Shown here in pieces: positions 517-23,143 of a stretch of 64,000 nt of DNA. The stretch comes from a virus (Duplodnaviria > Caudoviricetes): the IMG/VR virus record IMGVR_UViG_3300028533_000217, positions 34,307 through 98,306 of that record; one strand, written 5' to 3'. The position numbers and the translations under genes were made by a program. The notes beneath the pieces were generated by a model. It searched no databases, was not told the DNA's origin, and saw only the letters and a list, made by a program, of their open reading frames with translations. How positions within the stretch are numbered: position 1 is the stretch's first letter; each line of letters starts with the position of its first letter.

Positions 517-1269
517 ATGAGTGGTGTAGAAACTAAAAAATGTATAAAATGTGGGAGAGTGTTACCTGCGACAGAAGCTTATTTTAAGTACACCAATAAA
601 AATAAAAATAACTTTAGATCTTGGTGTAGAGATTGTGATAAAGAATATCAAAAAGCTTATAGAGAAAAAAATAGAGAGAAGAATAAAGAATATTATAAGA
701 AATATTATCAAGAAAATAAAGAAGAACTGCTTGAAAAAGGTAAAAAATATGTAGACGAGCATAGAGAACAATATTTAGATTATCATAGACAGTATTATAA
801 AGAAAACAAAGAAAGACTGGATAAAGATGCTAGAATATATAGAGAACAACATAGAGAAGAAATTGCTGAATATCATAAGAAATACCGAAAAGAACATAGA
901 GATGAAAAAAGAACATATTTCTTTAACCGTGCAGCTAGAGATAGATATACTAATGATGAAATAGAATTCAATAATATAACAATGGAAGAATTTCTAAACA
1001 TTTATAGTTTTTTTGATAATAAATGTGCTTACAGTGGTGTTGAATTAAACGAATCAAATAGATCTATAGATCATATAATACCTTTAGAATTAGGAGGGAC
1101 TAATGATTTGTGGAATTTAGTACCTTGTACAAGAGCTTATAATGCATCTAAATGTAATAAAACCTTGGAAGAATGGTATCCTAACGCTTTTTGTTATTCA
1201 GAAGAAAGACTTAATAAGATATATGAATGGATAAATCTAAATAAAGAGGGTGGGCATTATGATGAATAG
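517..1269 (+). CDS. Free-standing HNH homing endonuclease with N-terminal Zn finger and helical K/Y/R/E-rich repeats
   Basis: CIKC..CRDC zinc finger; CAYSG...SIDHIIPLELGGTNDLWNLVPCTRAYNASK HNH motif. Confidence 0.85.
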   Translation: MSGVETKKCIKCGRVLPATEAYFKYTNKNKNNFRSWCRDCDKEYQKAYREKNREKNKEYYKKYYQENKEELLEKGKKYVDEHREQYLDYHRQYYKENKERLDKDARIYREQHREEIAEYHKKYRKEHRDEKRTYFFNRAARDRYTNDEIEFNNITMEEFLNIYSFFDNKCAYSGVELNESNRSIDHIIPLELGGTNDLWNLVPCTRAYNASKCNKTLEEWYPNAFCYSEERLNKIYEWINLNKEGGHYDE

Positions 1270-2286
1270 TAAAAAAAGAAAAGAGATGGAAAATCTAATT
1301 TATGGGTTCTTTGATGCATTCGATCCAACTGGTAGGAATACGGAGTATTATAGAAACAAATTTAAAAGTATGAGCGACGCACAATTTGATAATTATTTTA
1401 AACAATTATTTGCTCAAGATGATCCATATTTAACAGCAACTATGGTTGATTATGAGAATCCTATATTGATTGAAAATATTGAAAAAGCTGCGGACTTTTT
1501 ACAAGTTCCCCTTTTTGAAAGAGTCGTGTTACCATATGCCAGTTCGGATCCTAACAACCCAATAATCACAAAACATGAATGTTTAGTGGGGTATTTAAAT
1601 ATAAAGCGTTAATTGAAGGCGTTTTTAAAACCTCTTTAATTGCTGGGAAGCCTAAGTCCTTTAAGGATATGGTAATCAGCAGCCAAGACTTCTTTTAGAA
1701 GTAAGGTTCAACGACTATCGAAAGGGTATCTATAGAGAAATACTATAGAGAGTAACCGAGTAGAGTACACTCAAGCGAGTGGAAACGGGAGGGTTCCTAT
1801 ATTTGGTAATAGAGTATAGGAATATGATATAGTCTAAACTTCTATAGAAATATAGAGCAGTTATAATAAGCGGTATAGTTGTAGCGAAACTGTACGAATA
1901 TAAATTTGCTTCAGCAAATGAACTTTAAAAAACTTGGGCTTTCTACAGATATTACCGATAGAAACATGATAACTGGTCAGGTTGTAGGTCATGATAAAAA
2001 CTCAAGAAACTCAGATGCAGAAACCACTTCGTTATTAACAGTTGGTGCGAATAAGTCTCTTAAAGAGTTTATGTCTATGAGAGCTGACGATATGGTTATG
2101 AAGAAAGAAATGACGCAAAAAATAATAAGAGATGGTTATGTGGCTATGGATGATTTAACTGATAAACTATCTAATAAAACAACATTAAACTCAGCAGCTG
2201 TATTCTTTATAGGAATGGGTTTAATGACTGACTTAGTAATGAATGATTATTTCTTACCAAAAGCAAACATACTGGACGAAGATTAA
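1259..2286 (+). CDS. Virion RNA polymerase beta C-terminal subunit, intron-split (exons 1259-1609 and 1909-2286, ~242 aa)
   Basis: Spliced junction reads VGYLNIKR|LQQMNFKK, then RNMITGQV and LKEFMSMRADD, matching the beta C-terminus (Y..KL.H...K; R...TQQP; L.E.LT.KSDD) as split off in phiKZ-like phages. Confidence 0.8.
1610..1908 (+). mobile_element. Group I intron, no internal ORF (299 nt)
   Basis: 5' exon ends in U (aaagcgT) and pairs with IGS ggcgtttt; core elements aattgctggg, aatcagcagcc, ttcaacgactat, gatatagtct; terminal G at 1908; P10 tgaag/cttca; removal restores the frame. Confidence 0.92.
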
Positions 2287-2326
2287 TGTAATTTACAATA
2301 TTTCAATCCCATATTATAAAAGTGAA
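2287..2326 (+). promoter_or_regulatory. Putative early (virion RNAP) promoter
   Basis: TGTAA..TTTCAATCCCATATTATAAAAGTGAA, a variant of the motif repeated about 11 times in the window. Confidence 0.6.
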
Positions 2327-2987
2327 ATACTATTATAATATGAAAGGAATTGATATTATGAAACAAAATTTAAATAATTATATAGAGGAAATAATAACAA
2401 GATATAAAAACTTTGATGGAGCACATGATGAAGAACATGCAAAAACAGTTATAAGTAATTCAGAATATATAGCAAATTGTATGATCCAAGAAGAAAATAT
2501 AGAAATAAATATGGATATGGTTAGAATAATAGCAGCAATGCATGATTTAGGATTAGCGTATGACAGAAAAACACATCATATAAAATCAGGAGAAATAGTT
2601 AGAAAAGAAGAAACTTTAAAAGAGTTCTTTAATGATGAACAGATAGAAATCATAGCAAAATCAGTTGAAGAACATAGAGCAAGTTATAAAGGAGAATATA
2701 CAAGCATATATAGTATGATAGTATCAGATGCTGATAGAATAAATGATATATACACAATGATAAATAGAAGTTATAAATACAATAAGAAACATAATCCTGA
2801 ATTTAGTGAAGAAGAATTATATCATGCTGTAACAGATCATTTAAGAGACAAATATGGTAGTGAAGGTTATGCAAGATTTAATACAAAGTATGCTGATGAA
2901 CAATTAAAACTAACAAGAGAAATACTTATAAATGAAGAAGAATATGATAAAATATATTCTGAATTATTCGGAATGCAATGGAAATAA
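2322..2987 (+). CDS. HD-domain phosphohydrolase (true start probably 2358)
   Basis: H...HA, AAMHDLG, HH, EHR, SDADR motifs. Confidence 0.85.
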   Translation: MKYYYNMKGIDIMKQNLNNYIEEIITRYKNFDGAHDEEHAKTVISNSEYIANCMIQEENIEINMDMVRIIAAMHDLGLAYDRKTHHIKSGEIVRKEETLKEFFNDEQIEIIAKSVEEHRASYKGEYTSIYSMIVSDADRINDIYTMINRSYKYNKKHNPEFSEEELYHAVTDHLRDKYGSEGYARFNTKYADEQLKLTREILINEEEYDKIYSELFGMQWK

Positions 2988-3012
2988 GATACCTAAGGGT
3001 ATCTTATTTTTT
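2984..3012 (+). terminator. Intrinsic terminator
   Basis: ataagatacc-taag-ggtatcttat followed by a T-run. Confidence 0.7.
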
Positions 3013-3023
3013 ATATTCATTAT

Positions 3024-3035
3024 AACAAATATTTA
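3024..3035 (+). promoter_or_regulatory. Late promoter AACA-N6-TA
   Basis: AACA aatatt TA upstream of the lipoprotein gene. Confidence 0.6.
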
Positions 3036-3051
3036 GAAAATAGAAAGGGGA

Positions 3052-3522
3052 TTGATAAAAATGAAAAGAATGATGATTACAGGATTAATCCTTACATTAA
3101 TTTTAAGTTGTATAGGGCTATCAGGTTGTAAAAAAATTGAAGAAATTGATAATAACAATAATACACAAACTGAAGAACCTCAGATAAATGTATATGTTTT
3201 AGAAAAAGAATATAATGCAATATTAGGTCTTGCCGAAAACGTATATATGATGTTGTCAGAAAATGAAAATGAGATGACACCAATGCAAGCTATCGAAATG
3301 ATAGAATATATACAAAAGAATAGAATAAAACCAACACAAGAATTAACAATCGCATTAGATGACTCATTAGATGATTTATTAGAATTATTTATAAAATATT
3401 ATATGGCTTCAGAAAGCGAAAAACCCGTTGTTGAAGCTGAAATAATAGAACTTTTAGAGTATATGAATGATTTAAGTTTAGAAATAGAAAGAATTATAGA
3501 CGAATATAAAACGATTATATAA
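3052..3522 (+). CDS. Putative lipoprotein
   Basis: Basic N-terminus, hydrophobic stretch and lipobox LSG-C. Confidence 0.7.
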   Translation: MIKMKRMMITGLILTLILSCIGLSGCKKIEEIDNNNNTQTEEPQINVYVLEKEYNAILGLAENVYMMLSENENEMTPMQAIEMIEYIQKNRIKPTQELTIALDDSLDDLLELFIKYYMASESEKPVVEAEIIELLEYMNDLSLEIERIIDEYKTII

Positions 3523-3539
3523 AGTTTTATAAATATGTT

Positions 3540-3562
3540 AACAAAATAGTAACATAAAAATA
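3540..3562 (+). promoter_or_regulatory. Tandem late promoters AACA-N6-TA
   Basis: AACA aaatag TA (3540-3551) and AACA taaaaa TA (3551-3562). Confidence 0.6.
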
Positions 3563-3612
3563 TAATTTATGTATCGGTTAAATAAAAAATATATTTTAAA
3601 GGAGAGGTCTAT

Positions 3613-4200
3613 ATGAATAAAAAAATAAAAAGTTTATTAGTAGCTGGGTTATTAGTAGTTGGAATGAGTGGAAATGTTTTTGCTGCAGAAAGCGATTTAC
3701 CTTCAATTTCTACATCTACAATAACACAACCAAAATTTGAAGATGGTAAAAGAGTTGTAGAACTTCAAGGTGGTCTTATAATAGTTGAAATGACGGAAAA
3801 AGAAAATGGTGAATATGATATAGTTGTAAAATGGGATGGTGAAAGTATAAAAGTATTAGGAGTAAAATCATATTATGAAAACGGTTCTATAGACCATACA
3901 AATTATTTTGAAGAATTATACCATTGTAATACATTAGAGGAAGAAGGTGAGTTCTTTAAAGGTACGGTTTTAGGAGGAGGAAATGGAGTCTCTGGACCTT
4001 TAGGAAAATTAGTTAAAGTTGAGGTAACATTTGAAAATCTTACAAAAGGTAATGAACCGGTAGTTCCACCAGAAGAACCAGAACCAGAAGAGGGAATAGA
4101 CGATCCGGAAACAGGAGATGCAGGGATGATGGTCGGAATAGCAACCGCAACATTAGCAAGTTTAGGATTAGTTGTTGTAAATAAAAAGAAAGATGAATAA
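3613..4200 (+). CDS. Secreted cell-wall-anchored protein (sortase substrate)
   Basis: Signal peptide ending VFA-A; Pro/Glu-rich linker; DPETG sorting motif followed by a hydrophobic segment and KKK tail. Confidence 0.85.
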   Translation: MNKKIKSLLVAGLLVVGMSGNVFAAESDLPSISTSTITQPKFEDGKRVVELQGGLIIVEMTEKENGEYDIVVKWDGESIKVLGVKSYYENGSIDHTNYFEELYHCNTLEEEGEFFKGTVLGGGNGVSGPLGKLVKVEVTFENLTKGNEPVVPPEEPEPEEGIDDPETGDAGMMVGIATATLASLGLVVVNKKKDE

Positions 4201-4248
4201 GTAAAATAGAGTAGAGATTTTCTCTACTCTATTTTAATTTTAAGGAGG

Positions 4249-4926
4249 TTGAGATATATGCGATTTAAAAGTATAATAAATATGATGTTGATTTCTATTT
4301 TATCTATAAGTGTTTGGGAAATAGGTCAGAAACAATGGGATTATTACAAAGCTAGAGAGACTTACAAACTAGCACAAGAAGAAAAACAACAAATGGATGA
4401 TGCGACAACGTATTTAAAAGAAAATGGATATGACTGGATAACTGTAGAAGGTACATCTATAAACTATCCAATCATGACGTATACAGACAATAGCTATTAT
4501 ATAAGTCACGACTATAAAGGGAATAAAAGTAACAGTGGTGCTATTTTTTATTGTTCTAGTGATAAACCGTTTAATGGTAGATATACTATGATATATGGAC
4601 ATAGTATGAAAAATGGAACAATGTTTAATAACCTACATTTCTTTCAAAAAGATAAGCAACGATTTAAAGATTCTATATTAACTATAGAAACAGTGGAAGG
4701 TGTTCGTAGATACAAACCATTTGCTTATTATGTAACTAATAACAATTTTTTCTATAAGAAAATAGATGAAATGAAAACAATTGATGCAATAACGTTGATA
4801 AAACAGAATAGTGATTATTTTATTAATGGAGTCGAATACGATGAAAATAGTCATATAGTTGGTTTATATACATGTGATTACAGTATTAATAACGGTAGGT
4901 TGATAGTGTTTTATATATCGGAATAA
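4249..4926 (+). CDS. srtB: Class B sortase
   Basis: N-terminal membrane anchor; WITVEGTSINYPI, GAIF, IYGHSMKNGTMF (His), LYTC (Cys), GRLIV (Arg). Confidence 0.9.
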   Translation: MRYMRFKSIINMMLISILSISVWEIGQKQWDYYKARETYKLAQEEKQQMDDATTYLKENGYDWITVEGTSINYPIMTYTDNSYYISHDYKGNKSNSGAIFYCSSDKPFNGRYTMIYGHSMKNGTMFNNLHFFQKDKQRFKDSILTIETVEGVRRYKPFAYYVTNNNFFYKKIDEMKTIDAITLIKQNSDYFINGVEYDENSHIVGLYTCDYSINNGRLIVFYISE

Positions 4927-5033
4927 TTTTTTATAATGCGATATACAATTATTTATGAAAGAAGTTCTATTTGGTTTAATATGCATACATGTGTTAGAAA
5001 TATGAGGTTAGTATAAAATAGAGGTGATTAAAT

Positions 5034-5222
5034 ATGAAAGACATTATTAATTTAATTTGCGATGTTATCATATTATGCGTTTTATTAACTACAGGAATGA
5101 TTGTTATACATGAAGTATTTATGAAAAGTTTATTATGTATTGCAGCCTGCATAGCAATTTTTATTAAAATAAAAGAATTATATTTGACAATAAAGAAAAA
5201 TCATGATAAAACTAAAGAATAA
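5034..5222 (+). CDS. Small two-TM membrane protein
   Basis: RBS gaggtg; two hydrophobic segments and a basic tail. Confidence 0.55.
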   Translation: MKDIINLICDVIILCVLLTTGMIVIHEVFMKSLLCIAACIAIFIKIKELYLTIKKNHDKTKE

Positions 5223-5261
5223 GTTATGGTGATTTATTTCACCATAACTTATATTTCTACC

Positions 5262-5300
5262 GTAAAAGATAATATTTCAATACTATATTATATAATTGAA
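5262..5300 (+). promoter_or_regulatory. Putative early promoter
   Basis: GTAAAAGATAATATTTCAATACTATATTATATAATTGAA. Confidence 0.7.
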
Positions 5301-5332
5301 ATATAATAAATATTATTTGGGGGTTTGATACC

Positions 5333-5746
5333 ATGAAAGAAAATTTAAATGGTTATAGAAAACAATTTAAAGGAAATGGTAGCGATGAACCTACAGATAA
5401 ACAAAAGAATATAATTAAAAAATTAAAAGCATTTTATGGAGATGACGTAATTCCTGATTGTAATACAAAAGGAGCAGCGTGGAGATGTATTAACAAATAT
5501 CAAGAAGTTGTAAAATTCGACAGAACTAAAAATGAATTTTATATTGAAGATGTTTCAGTAACTAATAAAACATCTTACAGATTAATAACAGAGGATGAAT
5601 ATATATGTGCAAAATTAATTAAAGAAGTTAAAAAATTAATGACAGAAAAAAATATAGAAGAATTTGAAGAAACTTTGAGTTATATAGGAGATTATAGTAT
5701 AATAAAAGACGTATGTGAATGTATATTAAAACAACAAAATCAGTAG
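5333..5746 (+). CDS. Hypothetical early protein
   Basis: ORF after early promoter; shares an IIxxLKxFYGxD motif with the next gene. Confidence 0.6.
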   Translation: MKENLNGYRKQFKGNGSDEPTDKQKNIIKKLKAFYGDDVIPDCNTKGAAWRCINKYQEVVKFDRTKNEFYIEDVSVTNKTSYRLITEDEYICAKLIKEVKKLMTEKNIEEFEETLSYIGDYSIIKDVCECILKQQNQ

Positions 5747-5800
5747 AAGCTTTTGAAACTGATTGAGTGATGTAAAAATAATATATATATATATAAATAA

Positions 5801-6313
5801 TTGGAGGTAATGTATATGAATAAATTACAAGCTGCTATAATAGAAGGATTAAAAGAATTTTATGGAGAAGATTTATATGTTCCTGAATCAATGTCTGTTG
5901 AAGAAGCTGCAGAATTTATAATTAAACATGATAGTGAATTAACAGAAGCTTTTGATGAATACTTTGGAGGAGGATTGTTTATTGCTGGGAAGTTAATCGT
6001 AGCTGAAGGACAATACAGTGCAGAAGAATTTATGGAGGCAATAGGAGCTGACGATGAGATGGATACGATGACTTATTTTGACATAGACTTTAATTGTTAT
6101 GATTATTACACAATAAACAATTTTAAACTAAATGAAGAACAACTTGAAGATCAAAGAAAGAAAATAGAAGAAATGAATAAAAAGTTTGCAGAAGAGGAAA
6201 GACAAATGCTTGAATATGAAGATTATTTAGCTGAACATGCTTATGATGATTTATATGATGGATATGATCCAGGAGATGATTTTGTGACTGATTGGATACG
6301 TTCTTTAGAATAA
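5801..6313 (+). CDS. Highly acidic hypothetical protein
   Basis: RBS ggagg before ATG at 5816; D/E-rich. Confidence 0.65.
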   Translation: MEVMYMNKLQAAIIEGLKEFYGEDLYVPESMSVEEAAEFIIKHDSELTEAFDEYFGGGLFIAGKLIVAEGQYSAEEFMEAIGADDEMDTMTYFDIDFNCYDYYTINNFKLNEEQLEDQRKKIEEMNKKFAEEERQMLEYEDYLAEHAYDDLYDGYDPGDDFVTDWIRSLE

Positions 6314-6359
6314 TGATTATAAATATTTTAATATAAAAAATAATAGGAGGGTTTATAAT

Positions 6360-7274
6360 ATGAAAAATATAAATAATTTTATGAATGAAATGAGTTATAA
6401 TTTATCTTTACAAGAATTAGAAGAAGTTATAGTTGATTATCAAGACGTTATAATAGAGTTTATAATAAATAATCAATACAACAAAAAGTATAGTAAAGAA
6501 TTTAAAGAAGTTTGTAGTGAAATAAGAAGTGATAAATTCTTTAGTGTATTATCAAGAATGATACATGAAGATGATGAAAGAATTAAATCTGATATGGCTT
6601 ATGTATTATATACAGCAACACATTTCAGTTTTGTTGAAAAAGGATTAAAAGATGAAGCAGTTGAATTAGGATATAAATTAAGAAATGAACAATTAGAAGG
6701 GCAATTAACAGATGACGATGAATTAAATATAGCAATAGTTATATGTTCCATAAAAGCATTTAGAAATTATAATTCAACACCATTCATAAGATCTAAAATG
6801 GTTGAAAATATAGTTGAATCTTTACCGGAAATATTATTTAACGTTTGCGGAAAATTAAAAGGATTAGAACCAAAACAAATAACTGATAAGATGATAAGTG
6901 AAATATTATTTAATTCAATTATAGATTTAGAAGTTAGAGATATTTTAATGGCTTTAGGAAAAGCAAAATTCCCTGATGATATAGAACCTAAATATAAACC
7001 ATTTGCAATAAGAATACAATCATTCTTATATAAAATTATATCAACATTATCACAACAATCATTTGATGAGGCTATGGTTGTTATATGTAAATCAATCAAG
7101 AGATTTAACGAAAGAACAGGAATGAATGAAACATTTATGGATAAATATTTAAACTATAGATTGTTAGTAGGATTTGTAAAGAGTGGTCATAAAATACCAG
7201 CACCAATGTTTACAACATGTGCTATGTTAGCTGAATTTATAAATAAACATAAAGAATTTGCTCAATTATTTTAA
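6360..7274 (+). CDS. Hypothetical protein
   Basis: 304-aa ORF with RBS aggagg. Confidence 0.7.
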   Translation: MKNINNFMNEMSYNLSLQELEEVIVDYQDVIIEFIINNQYNKKYSKEFKEVCSEIRSDKFFSVLSRMIHEDDERIKSDMAYVLYTATHFSFVEKGLKDEAVELGYKLRNEQLEGQLTDDDELNIAIVICSIKAFRNYNSTPFIRSKMVENIVESLPEILFNVCGKLKGLEPKQITDKMISEILFNSIIDLEVRDILMALGKAKFPDDIEPKYKPFAIRIQSFLYKIISTLSQQSFDEAMVVICKSIKRFNERTGMNETFMDKYLNYRLLVGFVKSGHKIPAPMFTTCAMLAEFINKHKEFAQLF

Positions 7275-7289
7275 GGAGGTATATAACAA

Positions 7290-7412
7290 ATGAAAAAAGA
7301 TTTAGGAAAATTTCTAATAGCAACAGGATCTGTAGAATCATATAACAATAAGCCAAGTTTAATAAGGGTATTAATATATAAATTTAAAAGACTAATTAAT
7401 AAGGAGATGTAG
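7290..7412 (+). CDS. 40-aa small basic protein (not in ORF track)
   Basis: RBS aaggaggt; MKKDLGKFLIATGSVESYNNKPSLIRVLIYKFKRLINKEM; fills the gap before infA. Confidence 0.55.
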   Translation: MKKDLGKFLIATGSVESYNNKPSLIRVLIYKFKRLINKEM

Positions 7413-7413
7413 T

Positions 7414-7635
7414 ATGGGTAAGAGTAAAGATATAATGAAAATAAAAGGAACTGTAATAAAATGTCTGCCTGGAGCTAAATTTATAGTTCAGGCAGATGAA
7501 GTTGATGTAACAGCAACATGTGTATTATCAGGTAAACTAAGACAAAATAAAATAATGTTAGTTGAAAATGATAAAGTAGAATTTGAAATATCAATTTACG
7601 ATTTAACAACCGGAAGAATAGTTTGGAGATACTAA
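7414..7635 (+). CDS. infA: Translation initiation factor IF-1
   Basis: KDIMKIKGTVIKCLPGAKF...LSGKLRQNKI....DKVEFEISIYDLTTGRIVWRY matches IF-1 along its full length. Confidence 0.92.
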   Translation: MGKSKDIMKIKGTVIKCLPGAKFIVQADEVDVTATCVLSGKLRQNKIMLVENDKVEFEISIYDLTTGRIVWRY

Positions 7636-7672
7636 TTTGATAAGAGGAAAAATTCCTCTTATCAAATTTTAT
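7634..7672 (+). terminator. Intrinsic terminator after infA
   Basis: aatttgataagaggaa-aaa-ttcctcttatcaaatt followed by Ts. Confidence 0.75.
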
Positions 7673-7681
7673 ATTTTACAT

Positions 7682-7693
7682 AACATAATTATA
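7682..7693 (+). promoter_or_regulatory. Late promoter driving the tandem ncRNA
   Basis: AACA taatta TA. Confidence 0.6.
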
Positions 7694-7696
7694 AAT

Positions 7697-7976
7697 ATAC
7701 TGTGAAGTCGATATGAATATGTAAGTCAAAAGCTTACATACAATGGCGCGAAACAAGTGGTGCTGATGTAAACATCAGATGGATGGCAGGTGTGACCTGA
7801 CAGCCATGCGGAATAGGTCATTGTCAAACAGTATTTACACTGTGAAGTTCATATCATATGTAAGTCAAAAGCTTACATACAATGGCGCGAAACAAGTGGT
7901 GCTGATGTAAACATCAGATGGATGGCAGGTGTGACCTGACAGCCATGCGGAATAGGTCATTGTCAAACAGTATTTA
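7697..7976 (+). ncRNA. Tandemly duplicated ~140-nt structured RNA of unknown family
   Basis: Two copies (7699-7837, 7839-7976) with an identical 121-nt core; GC-rich relative to the genome; nested stems; flanked by promoter and terminator. Confidence 0.7.
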
Positions 7977-7991
7977 ATTTACTTTTACATA

Positions 7992-8016
7992 GAGATAACC
8001 TTTAATAGGTTATCTC
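7992..8016 (+). terminator. Terminator-like hairpin after the tandem RNA
   Basis: gagataacct-ttaat-aggttatctc; weak U-tail. Confidence 0.55.
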
Positions 8017-8033
8017 AAATTATTTTAAAAGGA

Positions 8034-8714
8034 GTGATTTATATGTATATAACAATAGAATCTGAAGTTCATAAAGATTGGGGTTATGGATTAGAATTTA
8101 GATATTACGTTGACATGGATAATACATGGTGGTATTGTTATGAAGATATATGTGATTATATAGAATTAAATCAACAAGTTGCTGATAAAATATATAGACA
8201 CAAATTACAAGAAGATGATAAAAGAACCGTATATGACAGAAACCATAACAATAATCGTGGGGAACAAGAAACGATAGTTCTATATTTTATATCTTCCAAT
8301 GCTGTAAGATATATGGTGAAACGTAATAATGAACGTAACAGTAGATTAATAAAGGTTATGAACAATTTGGAATTCGTTAGTGGAGCTCATGAAATATTTA
8401 ACGATAACGAAGAGTTAAAAGAAAGAATAAATGTTTTAGGTAAATCTATAGAAAAATATGATTATGAAGAAATATTCTATCAGGCAAAACAATTAGTTGA
8501 ATCTGAATCGGGTAAAAATATATTAGACAAGATGGGAGTTATAGATAAAGATAAAGAATCTTTAATAGAACAGATAAAACATGAGATATACGATTATGAT
8601 GAAAATATAGAAGAAGTACAATTAACCATGAGAAACCTAAATGAAGAAAAGAAAGTTAAATTTAAAAAATCAGAAACAGAAATTCCTAAGTGGTTAAGTG
8701 AAGTTGTGAAATAA
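8034..8714 (+). CDS. Bro-N-like DNA-binding protein
   Basis: FRYYVD...WWYCYEDICDYIEL...FISSNAVRYMV resembles the Bro-N pattern. Confidence 0.5.
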   Translation: MIYMYITIESEVHKDWGYGLEFRYYVDMDNTWWYCYEDICDYIELNQQVADKIYRHKLQEDDKRTVYDRNHNNNRGEQETIVLYFISSNAVRYMVKRNNERNSRLIKVMNNLEFVSGAHEIFNDNEELKERINVLGKSIEKYDYEEIFYQAKQLVESESGKNILDKMGVIDKDKESLIEQIKHEIYDYDENIEEVQLTMRNLNEEKKVKFKKSETEIPKWLSEVVK

Positions 8715-8770
8715 TTCTAAACGGTGTTATATAACACCGTTTATTTTTTCTAAAGGAGGTAAAACATGAG

Positions 8771-9193
8771 ATGATACAAAATGCAGTAATATCTTATTTC
8801 TCCAAAGGAGATGAAGAAGATGCGCTTGTGGGTATTTATAATATTGCTTATAAAATAGCACAAGATAATGAGGCTATAACGTTAATATTTATAAATTTAT
8901 CAAATGATTATGATACAATAACAATAGATGATTTATCATATCCTATACCATATGGATCATATTCAGAATATAACGAGTATACGTTTGAAGAATTAGAAGA
9001 TCAAATATATTACATTTACAAAGAATTTTATTCACAAGGTGTTTTATATGAACCTGTGGTTATAATGATCCATGATGCTTCTAAGTTATGTGAAGATAAT
9101 GATGATTATCAAATCATAAGTTATTTAGATGATAAATTAACTTTATTAGATATTATGCAAGTTTATGTATTTTGTACAATAAGAGAAAAATAA
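8771..9193 (+). CDS. Acidic hypothetical protein
   Basis: ORF with RBS aaggagg. Confidence 0.6.
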   Translation: MIQNAVISYFSKGDEEDALVGIYNIAYKIAQDNEAITLIFINLSNDYDTITIDDLSYPIPYGSYSEYNEYTFEELEDQIYYIYKEFYSQGVLYEPVVIMIHDASKLCEDNDDYQIISYLDDKLTLLDIMQVYVFCTIREK

Positions 9194-9210
9194 AAATTAA
9201 TAATAACTAT

Positions 9211-9222
9211 AACAAATAAATA
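9211..9222 (+). promoter_or_regulatory. Late promoter AACA-N6-TA
   Basis: AACA aataaa TA. Confidence 0.6.
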
Positions 9223-9254
9223 TAATTATGAAAATAATAAGGAGGTAAGATAAT

Positions 9255-10899
9255 ATGGCAAATCCTTTATTAAGTGCGTTAAGAGAGAATGATAAAGAAG
9301 GTTTATTTAATGCATCACCAGCAATGGTGTGTTATCCAACAGGAATTCCAACATTAGATTATCAATTAGGATATACGTTAGTATCTAAAGACCAATATGG
9401 AGCAGTAACTGGGACACATGATTGTCTTGGTTTAGTTGGTGGTAGTTTTATAACTATCATAGGAAAATCAGGAACTGCAAAAACAGCGATAGCATGTAAA
9501 ATGGGAGCGGAAATAGTTAAAAATCATAAATCAAGTTTCGTTTTACATTATGATTTAGAACAAGCATTAAACCCAACAAGGGTTATGAATGTAACAGGAT
9601 TAACAAATGCAGAATATATGGACCATTATGTATTAAAATCTTCACGTTCATATATTGAGGATATATTTGATACGATTATGGATATAGCAAATGAAAAGCA
9701 AAAGAATAAAAAACTTTATCAGTATACAACTGATTTTAAAGATGAGTTTGGTCAACCAATAACATTATACGAGCCAACAGTATTCATAATAGATTCGATA
9801 CCAGTATTGGCTACAAGACCAGATCAAAAGAAAGTTAAAGCTAAGAAAGGTTCAGGTCAAGAAGATTATTATGTTGAAGACCAAGAGATAGAAGGTCAAA
9901 CATATGCAATGAGGGTAGCAAGAGCATTAAAGCAATTCTTTAGTAGATTAATACCAATAATAAAAGAATTTAATATAACTATAATAAGTATTAACCATAT
10001 AAATCAAAAGATAGAAATAAATCCATTTGCAAAATCACAAGCACAAGTTTTATATCTAAAACAAGACGAAAGTTTGCCTGGAGGAAATGCACCCATTAAC
10101 GCAAATAGTGGCATATAATAGTAATATTATATGAAAACCTCTTTAATTGCTGGAAAGCCTAAGTCCTTTAACGAGGATATGGTAATCAGCAGCCAAGGTA
10201 TATAATTAAAAGTATGTCAAAGATGCTAAAAGAAATAGACGTAGAGGATAAAAATAAATTGTATACAAGGTTCAACGACTATCGAAAGGGTAGCTATGGA
10301 GAAAGACCATAGTGAGAACCGAGTAGAGTACACTCAAGCGAGTGGAAATGGGAGGGTTCCTATATTTGGTAACAGAATATAGGATTATGATATAGTCTGC
10401 TCTATATGGAAACATATAGAAGGTATAGAAGTAGCGTTCTATATCGTAACAAATAGGATATTTTGCTAATACATTAATAAAACATGTTGCAGTAGGAAGT
10501 TCTAAATGTACGGTAGAAGAAGATGGATATTCAGGATTTAGAATAAATGCTGAAATAATAAAATCAAGAACGAATATATCTGGAGCAAAAGTCCCAATGA
10601 TATATGACCAAGATCACGGATTTAGTAAGGAAAGAACATTATTAGAATATGCAAGAGATTTAGGATTAATTAATGGATCTAGAATAGCTGCTAGATATTT
10701 AGGTGATGATGATAGTGTTAAATTTAACGAAAAGGATATAGTAAACGAATATCAGAATAGAGAAGAAGTACGAGCAGCTTTTGATAAGTGGGTGTACCCA
10801 CATCTAGAACAAATGTTATCTAGAGTAAATAAAGAAGAAGAAAAAGAAATGATGGAAAAAGACCAAAATGATTTATTAAACATAATAGATGAAGATTAG
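9255..10899 (+). CDS. RecA/UvsX-like recombinase, intron-split (exons 9255-10096 and 10458-10899, ~427 aa)
   Basis: PTGIPTLD, Walker A GKSGTAKT, DLEQAL, IIDSIP, INHI; spliced junction gives the RecA L2-adjacent motif PGGNAPI|YFANTLIK; KSRTN. Confidence 0.88.
10097..10457 (+). mobile_element. Group I intron, no internal ORF (361 nt)
   Basis: 5' exon ends cccaT pairing with IGS gtgg; core nearly identical to the 1610 intron; terminal G at 10457; removal restores the frame. Confidence 0.9.
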
Positions 10900-16173: not shown

Positions 16174-18261
16174 ATGAGTAAGAAAATATCAATATACCAT
16201 CAATTAGATGTAATTCATAAAGAGTTATTAAAAATGGATGATGATTCTGTAAATGAAATAGTCGAAATGCTTAAAGGGATAAACTTCGAAGGTATTGTAG
16301 AATTCTTCAATGAAGCTGATAAATTAGATGATATGGATTTATTTACATGTAGGAAACTTGTAGAAATACTACAATTTATTTATAATAATACAGATATAGT
16401 CCCACCAGTATCAGATGAGACGTATGATAAATTATATCAGATAATGTTAGATGCTGGTTTAGGAGATATTGTGGGTTCCGTTAATAGTCAAGGTAAACCA
16501 GTTAGAGAGCATAGATATCCTGATTTAAGAGGAACTTTAAATAAAGTACATTTTGTGTTTAATCTTGATAAAGAAGGAGATAAAAGAAGAAGTATAGAAG
16601 ATTGGATAACAACTATAGAAAATATCTTAGGATATCCTATAAATAATTCTAAAGATTTTGAATTAAGATTACAAGCTAAATGGGATGGATGTTCGGCAGT
16701 ATTCGAGTGTGATGAAGAAGGTGAATTAGAACATGTATTAATGAGGGGTGATACGGAAAAGAACTTGGCAGTTGATATATTAGAGTTATTTAAAGATAAA
16801 ATAAGTTTTAATCAATTTGCAAATGGTAAAGATAAATTTGCAATACAAACAGAAGTTCTTATGAATCAATCTGCATATGAAAGAATAATAAAAGAATATA
16901 AAGATTTCAAATCTCCTCGTTCAGCAACTTCATCAATATTAAATGAAAAAGTTTTACAACCAGAACTTACAGAGTATTTAACAGTAGAGCCATTAAGAAT
17001 ACAATATGTGGGAAAACAACCCGAAATAATTCCAAATGAAGAATTTGATATGATATCAAACTTATTTGATTTGAGAGATATTAGAGAATGTATAAGACAA
17101 ATAAATGAACATGCTAAAGCTGAAGGTAAAAGTACAGATGGTGTAGTATTACATCTTATAGATAAAAATATGCAGAATAAATTAGGTAGAGACGGAGCTA
17201 TAAACAGATATGAAGTTGCTTATAAATTTCCAGCAGAAGCTAAGAAGGCTAAATTAATAGATATAGATTTCTCTTATGGATTAGGAGGTAATATAACACC
17301 TGTAGCGAAAATAGAACCTATTGTAATGTTAGGTAAAACTATAAGTTCTATATCTATAGGTTCTATAGATAGATTTAGAAGTATGCAACATAAATTATGT
17401 TCAGGAAGTGAGATAATAGTAAGATATGAAATAATTCCATATATGGAAGTGAATGATACATGCAAAGTAAATGGATTCGGTAAACCTTTCTATATTCCAA
17501 CACATTGTAAACATTGTGGTCATCAATTAGTAGAGGATCCATTATTAAAATGTATTAATGAAGATTGTCCTTCAAGAATAATAGGGAATGTTGTAAACTA
17601 TATAAATAAGATGAGAATAGAAAATATAAATATAGAAACAGTTTCAACATTATTTGACCAAGGTATAATAACTAAAATAGAATCATTGTATGAACTAGAT
17701 AAACATAAATCTAAAATAGTTTCATTACCAGGATTTGGAGAAAAATCTTATGAAAAAATGATTGATGGTGTTAATAAGCGTAAAGTTGTATTTGATTATG
17801 AACTATTAGGTTCATTAGGAATTCAATCTATAGGTGTAAGAATGTTTAAGAAGATATTATCCGTTATGGATTTAGAAACATTATTGAGATTAGCTAAAGA
17901 CGGAATGTTGGCAATTAATTTAATGGGGTTATCTGGATTTGGAGAGAAAACAGCTAATAGAGTTCAACATGGTATATTAAGTAAATTACCGACTATATAT
18001 TATCTATTGAACGTTATACAATTAAAAGAAAAAGTTGCTCCAGGAAAATTGAAAGGAAAAGTATGTTTCTCTCAAATAAGAGATCCTAAATTTGAATCAG
18101 TATTAATACAAAATGGATATGAAGTGGTTGATTCATTAACTAAATCTACAGATTATTTAGTAGTACCAAATCCTGAAGTAACATCTAGTAAAATAACAAA
18201 AGCTAAAAAGTATGGAATTCAAATATATAGCTTAGAGGAAGCAAAATTAAAATTAAAATAA
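16174..18261 (+). CDS. ligA: NAD-dependent DNA ligase
   Basis: SDETYD, KWDG adenylation motif, DGVV, AYKFPA, Zn finger CKHC..C....C, HhH repeats, C-terminal BRCT. Confidence 0.95.
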   Translation: MSKKISIYHQLDVIHKELLKMDDDSVNEIVEMLKGINFEGIVEFFNEADKLDDMDLFTCRKLVEILQFIYNNTDIVPPVSDETYDKLYQIMLDAGLGDIVGSVNSQGKPVREHRYPDLRGTLNKVHFVFNLDKEGDKRRSIEDWITTIENILGYPINNSKDFELRLQAKWDGCSAVFECDEEGELEHVLMRGDTEKNLAVDILELFKDKISFNQFANGKDKFAIQTEVLMNQSAYERIIKEYKDFKSPRSATSSILNEKVLQPELTEYLTVEPLRIQYVGKQPEIIPNEEFDMISNLFDLRDIRECIRQINEHAKAEGKSTDGVVLHLIDKNMQNKLGRDGAINRYEVAYKFPAEAKKAKLIDIDFSYGLGGNITPVAKIEPIVMLGKTISSISIGSIDRFRSMQHKLCSGSEIIVRYEIIPYMEVNDTCKVNGFGKPFYIPTHCKHCGHQLVEDPLLKCINEDCPSRIIGNVVNYINKMRIENINIETVSTLFDQGIITKIESLYELDKHKSKIVSLPGFGEKSYEKMIDGVNKRKVVFDYELLGSLGIQSIGVRMFKKILSVMDLETLLRLAKDGMLAINLMGLSGFGEKTANRVQHGILSKLPTIYYLLNVIQLKEKVAPGKLKGKVCFSQIRDPKFESVLIQNGYEVVDSLTKSTDYLVVPNPEVTSSKITKAKKYGIQIYSLEEAKLKLK

Positions 18262-18263
18262 AG

Positions 18264-18275
18264 AACAATAAATTA
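18264..18275 (+). promoter_or_regulatory. Late promoter upstream of the large non-coding region
   Basis: AACA ataaat TA. Confidence 0.6.
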
Positions 18276-18635
18276 ATAATGTTAGGGTAAATAAAATAGG
18301 ATTAGTCTCTTAGTAACATGAGAATTACTTAACCGTAACCAGAACGACGTAAGCTGATAATTCCAGTGATACGGATTAGTAAGCATCGGTTATGCATGTG
18401 AAAAGAGGCTAAAGAACTATTTTTAAGATTTTACCCTGTATAAATTTTGAGTCTCATAGCACTGAATTTTTTATATATTATTTCGAGTGAATGAGTCTAA
18501 TTGTTACTAAGTACGTTCTATCAGTACGTCTTATCATATAGATAATTCAGGAAAGTGGTTCAGGAAAACAGTCAACGATTAGCCCCGAGATATCGAATTG
18601 GTTATTAAAAAGTTTAGTTATATAAGGCGATTTTA
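18275..18635 (+). ncRNA. Candidate large pseudoknotted ncRNA
   Basis: No ORF; long-range complementarities 18284-91/18430-37, 18302-11/18403-12, 18309-18/18502-11, 18346-59/18519-30. Confidence 0.6.
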
Positions 18636-18642
18636 TATTTTT

Positions 18643-18782
18643 TTTAATTTGAACTGGTGATACACGACTGAGGTTACTTAGCATTGACAACATAGGATTT
18701 GACCTTGCGGTAATCAAATATAACTTGAAATTATTTAAGTTGTATAAAGGTTGTGTATCACCCTTCCTACGTTCAAATTAAA
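18643..18782 (+). ncRNA. Candidate ~140-nt structured RNA domain
   Basis: Closing stems 18643-54/18771-82 and 18656-68/18750-62 enclosing internal hairpins. Confidence 0.55.
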
Positions 18783-18838
18783 TTTTATTAACAATATAAC
18801 AAATATGTAGATTAAATAATATATAGGAGGTAATATTT

Positions 18839-19195
18839 ATGAATGGAAAGAAAATAACAAAAACTATTTTAGTTATAGGTAGAGTAGAATTTAAAGGTGC
18901 TCAATGGAATATTTTAAAAAGAATAATGGGTGTTTCTGAAGAAGAATATGAAAACTGTATAATAAATTTAGTTAATAAACCTTTATCATTTACAGTGCCT
19001 GATAATGTACAAAAATATGATTTAGTCGTAACTTCACAATCAGGACCGTTATTATTAAGAAATATGAAGAAAAGATGTAAAGATGTCCCACTAATAAAAC
19101 CTTATTGGGATAAGGAAAAGAAATTTGTAGGATTTATGAAATTAAATGAAGTTGTAGTTAAATATGATTACGAACTTTTCAGATTTGAAAAATAA
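18839..19195 (+). CDS. Hypothetical protein
   Basis: RBS aggagg; late promoter AACA aatatg TA at 18798-18809. Confidence 0.65.
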
Positions 19196-19241
19196 CAGCA
19201 TTAGACATCTATAGAGATATAGATGTCTAATTTTATGTTAC

Positions 19242-21478: not shown

Positions 21479-23143
21479 ATGTATAAAATGTTAAGTGAAT
21501 ATACAAGAACTTTTGATGATAAATTAAATTTACCTCTAATTAATAGAGAGTTAGATAAACCATTATATATTTACGTATACGAAACGATTAAATCGTTGGA
21601 GGTATTCGAATCTATAAAGATTTTAGGATATGAATATAATGAAAATCCTAATGATATAAAACTTAACGATTATATAAGAACTAGATCACAAAATGGTAAG
21701 AAAGTTCAAGAAGATCCTGTAGAAGTTATGTATATGAGTGAATCTAGATGTGGTGAACTTAAGATTCATTATGAGCTATCTATAGATGTTAAACAAGAAG
21801 ATGGTAGCGTTAAGATGATGAGTAAAACTTATACAAAGAATATATTAATTCCTATAAAGGATCAAGATGGTTATTATATGCTTAAAGGAAAGAGATATAT
21901 TTTAATGTATCAGTTAGTTGATTCAACAACATATAGTACATCAAATAGTGTCGTGCTTAAATCTATAATGCCTATTACATTAAAAAGAAAAACAAAAGTA
22001 ATTCATGATGTTGATAGAAATCCATATACAATCCCATTATATTTCACGAATATATTTAAGAATGAAATTAATATGATGTTATTATTCTTCTCTAAGATGG
22101 GATTTGTGGAATCATTAATATATTTCAGCATGGATAAAGTTATAAGTTTATCATTGACATTAGGAGATGATTTAGATAAGTACGTATATTTTAAAATAAG
22201 CAACGACGCATTTGTTAAAGTGAACAGATTCGCATTTGAAGAATCTATTGAAGTTAAATCTATAACAGGAATGATATTAGATTTAGTTAATAATAGAGTT
22301 TCAGTATCTGATATGGTGGATACAAATTTCTGGTTAGAGAAATTAGGTCATCAACCTAATATTCAACAACCTAACTTTAAAAGAGCAAAAGCGAGAAATC
22401 TTCTATTATCCGTTGACCGTATGATGGATATGACAACTAGAAGAGTTCTTAATATATCAGCAGATCATAAAGATAGTATGTATAGTGCATTAAGATGGAT
22501 GTTTATGAATTATAACGATCTAAAGAGTAAAAGAATTATGGACATAACTAATAAAAGATTAAGAGATAATGAATATATAGCTTCATTAATGACAAGAGAG
22601 TTAAGTAATTCTCTATATAGAATCATGAGTAAAGTAAGAAAACCGCAATCAAGAAATTTAAATACATTAGAAGAATTATTTTCGTTTAGAGGTGATATAT
22701 TAATAACTAATCTTTATAATTCGGGATTATTTAAGTTTGATGATACGGTTAATGATATGGATTTCTTCAATAAGTTACGTTATACAATTAAGGGACCAAA
22801 TTCACAAGGAAATTCATCTGGAAAAACTATAGCTACATGTCAAAGAGGTATAGATCCTTCATTTGTAGGTAGAATAGATTTAAATGTTGTAGGAAACTCT
22901 TCTCCAGGTGAAACAGGTGTGTTGACGCCATTCATAAAAACATATGGATTAAATATATCAGATAAAAAAGAACCTGAAGACGGACAATATAAATTATTCA
23001 AAATTATAGAAGAAGCGGTTAAAAATGAATATGAATATATAGAACATTTCGGAATAGAAAATTATGATGATTATTATAAAATGGTAAACAAGTTATATGA
23101 AACAACAAGTGGTTGTTCTATAATAACATCTAAAAAAGAATAA
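21479..23143 (+). CDS. Non-virion RNA polymerase beta subunit, N-terminal part
   Basis: IPIKDQDGYYMLKGKRYILMYQL; RGIDPSFVGRIDL...SPGETGVL (beta region D equivalent). Confidence 0.85.
   Translation: MYKMLSEYTRTFDDKLNLPLINRELDKPLYIYVYETIKSLEVFESIKILGYEYNENPNDIKLNDYIRTRSQNGKKVQEDPVEVMYMSESRCGELKIHYELSIDVKQEDGSVKMMSKTYTKNILIPIKDQDGYYMLKGKRYILMYQLVDSTTYSTSNSVVLKSIMPITLKRKTKVIHDVDRNPYTIPLYFTNIFKNEINMMLLFFSKMGFVESLIYFSMDKVISLSLTLGDDLDKYVYFKISNDAFVKVNRFAFEESIEVKSITGMILDLVNNRVSVSDMVDTNFWLEKLGHQPNIQQPNFKRAKARNLLLSVDRMMDMTTRRVLNISADHKDSMYSALRWMFMNYNDLKSKRIMDITNKRLRDNEYIASLMTRELSNSLYRIMSKVRKPQSRNLNTLEELFSFRGDILITNLYNSGLFKFDDTVNDMDFFNKLRYTIKGPNSQGNSSGKTIATCQRGIDPSFVGRIDLNVVGNSSPGETGVLTPFIKTYGLNISDKKEPEDGQYKLFKIIEEAVKNEYEYIEHFGIENYDDYYKMVNKLYETTSGCSIITSKKE

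Follow-up and report, generated by a model that had tools for sequence, protein, structure and literature searches.

A predicted large structured RNA behind ligA in a clade of AR9/PBS1-like jumbo phages

To our knowledge, large and highly conserved non-coding RNAs are uncommon in bacteria and phages, and few classes are known (ROOL, GOLLD, OLE). RNAs of these classes have proved to form unprecedented RNA-only assemblies. A long gap free of open reading frames (ORFs) behind the DNA ligase gene ligA of an uncultured phage raises the question whether it encodes such an RNA and, if so, where the RNA begins and ends, how it folds, whether it belongs to a known class and what it might do.

The gene-free region and its relatives

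The 64,000-nt stretch analysed here (hereafter, the window) comes from a 98-kb IMG/VR virus record with an estimated completeness of ~47% and has a G+C content of 27%. All features described below lie on the plus strand unless stated otherwise. The ligA gene (16174..18261) encodes an NAD-dependent DNA ligase of 695 aa with the Pfam domains DNA_ligase_aden, OB, HHH_5 and BRCT; it is complete through the BRCT domain, and the next ORF is separate. The closest cultured phages by LigA are jumbo Staphylococcus phages, e.g. S6, and Bacillus phage PBS1 (27–30% identity), which places the phage among the AR9/PBS1-like jumbo phages. Judged by this similarity, it is an uncultured giant gut phage grouped with them. 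PBS1 is a close relative of AR9 with a sequenced genome. Phages of this group have two multisubunit RNA polymerases each, and a multisubunit RNA polymerase beta-like protein (PF00562) is encoded two genes 5' of ligA in the window. A polymerase-like gene is located at 21479–23143. No RNA-binding candidate was found among the neighbouring ORFs using PHROG and Pfam, and ARAGORN found neither tRNA nor tmRNA genes in the 64-kb window. The best DNA matches of the stretch are sequencing runs labelled gut metagenome; no RNA run is present among the listed runs that match it.

The gap after ligA comprises positions 18262–18838 (577 nt), close to the ~570 nt without ORFs described in the initial annotation of this locus. 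Its sole ORFs, of 34 and 56 aa, are both on the minus strand. No long or conserved frame was found in the gap of the window and 14 relatives, either with code 11 or with read-through of TGA, TAG or TAA, and the coding reading with one of these codons recoded was rejected, as no consistent open frame exists. The 3' neighbour of the gap here, not found at this place in every relative, is an ORF of 118 aa with no known function (18839..19195). It has no match in Pfam or PHROG, and its protein has 75 homologue clusters at 62–95% identity. Behind this gene, a perfect 14-bp hairpin at 19200–19231 has U-tracts on both strands and resembles a bidirectional terminator.

Relatives were obtained from fetched contigs and from pattern scans of viral and metagenome contigs, and formed 17 distinct sequence lineages. 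Four matches from a 17-mer scan of viral contigs (L017, L018, L020, L021) were discarded as GC-rich chance matches. A gene-free gap of 525–993 nt directly follows the ligA stop codon in all 17 lineages, LigA identity among the core variants being 64–85%, and ligA is the only neighbour that is invariant in all of them. Three ORFs lie between the gap and the 118-aa gene in L024, five in L035 and one of 145 aa in L038, and a convergent SNF2 helicase is located 3' of the gap in L050–53. Since the gap stays with ligA despite the differing 3' genes, the element is tied to the 3' side of ligA rather than to whichever gene follows. The site just 3' of the RNA terminator is an insertion hot-spot (L024:1253–3399, L035:1440–3445, L038:3071–3508, L050:1272–3437), where lineage-specific gene sets include a WDGH-domain ORF and a convergent SNF2-type helicase. 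In one contig (L047:713–2748) ligA was called only as a C-terminal piece of 310 aa, possibly due to a frameshift or an assembly error, and the RNA after it is intact.

Outside this set, none of 50,697 phage records was matched by the gap in a blastn search. The pattern of the conserved core described below had zero matches in 185,579 prokaryote species (one genome each), hence no host or prophage copy was found there. S6, PBS1 and a distant ligA relative (L071, LigA identity 34%, fetched ligA locus) have neither the gap nor a match to the core model. This model, R1, scores 136 bits at a single copy, and two relatives, 80% and 97% complete, have one copy of the RNA each. By these searches the predicted RNA family is restricted to a single clade of uncultured phages.

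Promoter, strand and transcript ends

The initial annotation had placed a late promoter before the element, with the transcription start at ~18275. The consensus of AR9 late promoters is AACA-N6-TA/G, with the last base serving as the start site (PMC5312081). The sequence AACAATAAATTA at 18264..18275 (late-promoter-like motif P1, a label distinct from that of helix P1 below) fits this consensus and predicts the start at A18275, as annotated. Over the whole window the AACA-N6-TR motif is not enriched (129 found vs 127 expected), and hence a single occurrence is weak alone. Within ≤90 nt 5' of genes in the window it was found at 18 of 65 genes in the sense orientation vs 6 in the antisense one, given 5.5±2.2 in shuffles. 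Moreover, exactly one AACA-N6-TA motif is found 9–69 nt 5' of the core in each of the 17 lineages. The extended form at gene starts in the window is approximately TATA-N-(A/T)T-AACAA-N5-TA, usually 20–55 nt before the start codon. No late-promoter motif is present inside the gap of the window between the core and the 3' domain; therefore both domains are expected on one transcript. A second late-promoter-like motif, P2 (AACAAATATGTA, 18798..18809), was assigned to the next gene; such a motif occurs 3' of the RNA in 16 lineages out of 17 and is missing only where the next gene is convergent.

The presumed 3' end is marked by a conserved block, the U-rich tail AAAUUUUAUU at 18780..18789, which follows the closing helix of the 3' domain. 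A canonical hairpin with a U-tract is located at the RNA 3' end in ten lineages, namely nine of the long type and L050 (e.g. L026, 3403–3437), as called by a scan in L026 and by reading of the sequence in the remaining ones. In the window and six other short-type lineages an AU-rich closing helix is followed by AAAUUUUAU, and a simple terminator scan found no canonical terminator in the window. With both ends placed by these motifs, the predicted RNA would extend from 18275 to ~18790, yielding a length of ~515 nt; in relatives its size is up to about 900 nt. The end at 18635 given in the initial annotation is thus much too early.

Two observations bear on the strand. Relative to shuffled sequences, the plus strand has a markedly more stable fold (z of −4.85), and the minus strand has not (z of −1.7). 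Among paired cells of the alignments, G.U is found 61 times vs 7 for A.C, which indicates that the plus strand is the folding molecule and fits RNA, not duplex DNA.

Two domains, their outer helix and the linker

The conserved core is a rod of 115 nt (18302..18416) that consists of helices P1 (18302–11/18403–12), P2 (18316–20/18395–99), P3 (18330–35/18387–92), P4a (18348–50/18371–73) and P4b (18353–56/18364–67), separated by near-invariant internal loops. The core alignment (A2) comprises 16 distinct variants. In it, pairing is kept in 93.8% of cells, with 17 pairs changed on both sides, a result that none of 500 shuffles matches, although with 16–17 distinct sequences from one clade the shuffle control overstates the significance. 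Controls with the 3' partners slid by 1–3 columns are free of that weakness, and they yield 34–45% paired cells and at most four double-changed pairs. RNAalifold recovers the P1–P4 helices independently.

Helix P1 had been proposed from the single sequence (ttagtctctt/aagaggctaa); it is present in the minimum free energy (MFE) fold and covaries. The proposed pairing ttact..ccgta/tacgg..agtaa is contradicted by the alignment, as CCG covaries with the CGG of P3, for which the variants TAACCG/CGGTTA, GAATG/CATTC, AAGCG/CGCTT, AGCCG/CGGCT and AATCG/CGATT were observed. Conservation of the core is far above that of its surroundings: 60 of its 115 columns are invariant, mostly the unpaired ones. The near-invariant unpaired bases include UAGUA, GAGAAUUAC, GUAACCAGAACGA, the loop UAAUUCC and GGAUUAGUA(A/C)GCAUC.

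The 3' domain (18646..18779) forms a three-way junction supported by covariation. It consists of the outer closing helix (18646–54/18771–79), an invariant GAA/UUC pair (18651–53/18764–66), the 14-bp helix H2 (18656–69/18749–62) and two arms, H3 (18672–77/18710–15) and H4 (18718–25/18738–45). The alignment of this domain (A4) contains eight distinct short-type variants; 95.9% of its cells are paired and 14 pairs are changed on both sides, with 0 of 500 shuffles matching and slid controls at 33–43%, the alignment being fitted to the model and hence leaning towards it. RNAalifold applied to a plain MAFFT alignment already gave H2 and H4. The nine long-type lineages have ~200 extra conserved nt within the 3' domain. 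Taken together, the comparison shows a conserved plus-strand RNA fold of two domains, with frozen unpaired bases and at a fixed genomic position.

Around the core, the MFE fold contains an outer helix P0, formed by the 5' strands AGGGUAAA and AAAAUAG (18284..18299) and the 3' strands CUAUUUU and UUUACCCU (18417..18437). Its two parts had been recognised in the initial annotation as agggtaaa/tttaccct (18284–91/18430–37) and aaaatag/ctatttt (18293–99/18417–23); both are present, and relatives have lineage-specific equivalents. An equivalent outer helix of lineage-specific sequence exists in most of them, with RNAduplex z of about −2 or stronger in 13 lineages out of 17 and the lowest value of −6.4. 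A 9-bp 5' hairpin (CCCCAAUAA/UUAUUGGGG) is also possible in 13 of the 17 lineages (e.g. L010:3345–3560, L026:2545–2760, L045:1410–1640), and it excludes the outer closing helix because of shared 5' bases. Changes in the 5' arm of the hairpin yield G.U pairs. The window, L002 and L032 do not have the competing hairpin. One interpretation of the two alternatives is a conformational switch, another a folding intermediate.

The sequence GAAUUA in the P2/P3 internal loop (18322..18327) is the exact complement of UAAUUC in the terminal loop of P4 (18358..18363). The latter is invariant in all variants and the former in 16, the sole exception being GGAUUA in L046, which pairs via G.U. This invariance and one wobble-compatible variant are the basis on which we consider the GAAUUA/P4-loop pairing a candidate pseudoknot that may form. 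It is the only candidate with any comparative backing and differs from the pseudoknots proposed previously.

The two domains are joined by a less conserved linker (18438..18645), in which motif blocks are kept across lineages. These are two AGUACG motifs (18510–15, 18523–28), a second UAAUUC (18543–48) and two CAGGAAA motifs (18548–54, 18561–67). MFE helices of the linker are without support from the comparison. A second UAAUUC-like word beside GGAA motifs is found in approximately 10 of the 17 lineages, and the block is seen in L002, L010, L032, L044, L045, L046 and L050. Pairing with the invariant GAAUUA at 18322–27 would also be possible for its variants UGAUUC and UGAUUU, which suggests this word as an alternative pseudoknot partner of GAAUUA.

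Serial pseudoknots or a conformational switch had been proposed based on complementarity of the linker segment 18502–18530 to three separate segments of the core. In the window this complementarity is real (10/10, 6/6 and 6+6 bp) and above chance, as it is reached by 4 of 1000 dinucleotide shuffles and, in a second test, by 0 of 200. It is not conserved in the relatives. The positional pairings are kept in only 2–4 of 12 comparable lineages; in the 16 other lineages, the complementarity statistic reaches p<0.05 once, and in 12 of them at least 13 of 200 shuffles match it. A G-to-A change in the core of L038 is compensated within P4a only and not in 18502–18530; similarly, where the 5' strand of P4b changes, the matching changes are found in its 3' strand, not in 18502–18530. 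The apparent complementarity may originate from a UNAGUAMG-like word that occurs twice in the core loops. Hence the alignment of homologues, which had been proposed as a check, upholds the core helices by covariation over the 16 variants and not the pairings of 18502–18530, and the multiply pseudoknotted switch that had been built on that segment is not supported.

Possible roles and comparison with known systems

We consider it probable that a large structured late non-coding RNA, a new family of the AR9/PBS1-like jumbo clade, is encoded here by a gene of its own; its likely role is that of a trans-acting scaffold or decoy. The non-virion RNA polymerase would start at A18275 from the AACA-N6-TA motif just past the ligA stop codon, and transcription would end at the 3' closing helix and U-tract near 18790, producing an RNA of ~515 nt. 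Its predicted 5' domain would be a rod with the outer helix P0 followed by P1–P4 and their invariant internal loops, probably compacted by pseudoknot pairing of the P4 loop with the P2/P3 internal loop; the variable linker with its repeated AGUACG and GGAA motifs would join it to the 3' domain, for which covariation predicts a three-way junction. Late in infection, the RNA might serve in trans as a scaffold or decoy that binds a phage or host protein, or further copies of the RNA, through its invariant loops and repeated motifs, as has been suggested for other large ornate RNAs. This trans-acting role is a guess from the anatomy of the molecule. Regulation of a neighbouring gene by the RNA is probably not to be expected.

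An unlikely alternative is that the element belongs to the ligA transcript and acts in cis, as a structured 3' UTR involved in the stability, processing or tuning of the ligA mRNA. The strict linkage, with ligA being the one invariant neighbour in 17 lineages of 17, would agree with such a role, as would the lack of a canonical terminator between ligA and the element in the window and a strong hairpin immediately 3' of the ligA stop codon in most relatives. However, the late-promoter motif lies between the ligA stop codon and the structure in all 17 lineages, 0.5–0.9 kb with ~60 invariant unpaired bases far exceeds the needs of 3' protection, and S6, PBS1 and L071 have ligA without such an element.

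The two possible folds at the 5' base and the two UAAUUC-like sites available to GAAUUA could also mean that the RNA is expressed late as a molecular switch, or that it self-assembles, a possibility that we regard as doubtful. If it were true, a metabolite, a protein or a second RNA copy on the invariant core would set the conformation, the linkage to an NAD-dependent ligase might mean a shared function, and the RNA would represent a new class of phage riboregulator or RNA-only assembly. A narrower form of this idea, in which the core binds a ligand or protein and toggles the base helices, thus controlling read-through into the 3' late genes or the activity of the RNA itself, seems rather improbable. 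It draws on the mutually exclusive 9-bp hairpin and outer helix in 13 of the 17 lineages, on the aptamer-like invariant internal loops, on the two possible partners of GAAUUA and on a sub-threshold resemblance to the TPP aptamer in one lineage (20.2 bits). Yet three lineages, that of the window among them, have no competing hairpin, the next gene is served by a promoter of its own and the genes 3' of the RNA vary by lineage; further, the TPP score is far under the gathering score of 54.3, no such match is seen in the window at E≤10, and the nested P1–P4 helices are unlike the TPP aptamer.

The initial annotation had envisaged a member of ROOL, GOLLD or a similar class, or a new class. A search of the whole window against Rfam 15 (4227 models), the check suggested there, gave no match at the gathering score. 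At E≤10, no ROOL, GOLLD, OLE, RNase P, tmRNA, 6S or intron family was found in the gap (18150–18900), and neither ROOL nor GOLLD was matched in eight relatives at E≤1 or in the long forms L026 and L045 at E≤10. The permissive scans of the gap and the relatives returned chance-level snoRNA, miRNA and sRNA matches plus the 20-bit TPP match in one lineage; in the window and the relatives scanned, nothing at E≤10 qualified as a real match. Membership in the named classes is therefore not upheld, while the alternative of a new class of large structured non-coding RNA is. Group I and II introns were rejected, as ligA is intact and the only match to an intron model has 18 nt and 15 bits, a chance level; tmRNA was rejected with neither an Rfam match at E≤10 nor an ARAGORN prediction. 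A 6S-like RNA or promoter mimic, an anti-Shine-Dalgarno element and a CsrA sponge (two GGA motifs) were dropped for lack of specific support. Elsewhere in the window, two ORF-less group I introns proposed at 517–10899 are not recognised by the Rfam intron model in the gathering-score scan of the whole window.

A very divergent ROOL, GOLLD, OLE, RNase P RNA or group I/II intron is accordingly most improbable. The size, the phage origin and an ornate fold like that of ROOL and GOLLD (PMC5737381) would agree with it, as would the gut metagenome runs. Against it stand the zero of 4227 Rfam models at the gathering score, with the named families absent even at E≤10 in the window and in long-type relatives, the window without tRNA or tmRNA, a fold simpler than that of ROOL, and the intact ligA, given which the element is not an intron.

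We give equally little credence to an element acting at the DNA level, such as a replication origin, packaging site or recombination site. It is true that a big AT-rich non-coding region adjoins replication genes here (ligA and the polymerase-like gene at 21479–23143), but the pairing is strand-specific and accepts G.U and not A.C (61 vs 7), GC skew has no turn at this position, no direct-repeat or iteron organisation was noted on reading the alignments by eye, and promoter and terminator signals bracket the region. Finally, a functionless gene remnant or chance AT-rich structure is hardly credible, since, even though AT-rich sequence gives many weak helices and the MFE helices of the linker are unsupported by comparison, 31 pairs with compensatory changes over two domains strongly disfavour it, the unpaired core bases are near-invariant while LigA falls to 64% identity, and no frame is conserved.

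The preferred reading, a stand-alone gene for a late structured RNA, adds to jumbo phages with their own RNA polymerases a well-delimited RNA family that has a predicted promoter, a predicted terminator and two covariation-backed domains. Such an RNA provides a concrete subject both for structure determination and for studies of the roles of large RNAs late in giant-phage infection.

A further system for comparison is the TPP aptamer, a three-way junction with the P2/P3 and P4/P5 arms and an invariant CUGAGA. The core sequence UGAGAAUUAC resembles the J3/2-P2' segment of this aptamer (RF00059), and the core arm CGU-AA-GCUG-(U/A)UAAUUC-CAG(C/U)-GA(U)-(A/G)CG resembles its P4/P5 pyrophosphate arm. 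In contrast to the aptamer, the UGAGA of the core is replaced by GGGGA or GGAGA in five lineages, and the core has neither the P3 hairpin nor the three-way junction, its covariation corresponding to a nested rod. A TPP riboswitch was rejected given this nested P1–P4 topology, the absence of a match in the window at E≤10 and the score of 20.2 bits vs the gathering score of 54.3 in L045 only.

ROOL and GOLLD are large ornate RNAs known from bacteria, prophages and phages (PMC5737381), and cryo-EM structures of both have been described (PMC12286853 / 10.1101/2024.12.08.627333). ROOL was originally discovered in data from cow rumen. The RNA studied here is similar to them in being 0.5–0.9 kb long, non-coding, intricately folded and phage-borne, and the cow rumen origin of ROOL parallels the gut metagenome runs that are the best DNA matches of the stretch. 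It differs in several respects. ROOL has six junctions and three pseudoknots, whereas the RNA in the window is simpler, with one unbranched rod and one three-way junction; no tRNA genes are located nearby (ARAGORN, 64-kb window), and the RNA is limited to one AR9-like jumbo clade, where it lies behind a late promoter motif of the phage RNA polymerase. Within the jumbo phages, PBS1 and S6 differ in that protein genes directly follow ligA and their genomes have no match to the core model. Late transcription units of AR9 have AACA-N6-TA/G promoters read by the non-virion RNA polymerase (PMC5312081, PMC5449584). The locus described here resembles such a unit, since its promoter motif has the same spacing and the phage encodes an RNA polymerase beta-like protein.
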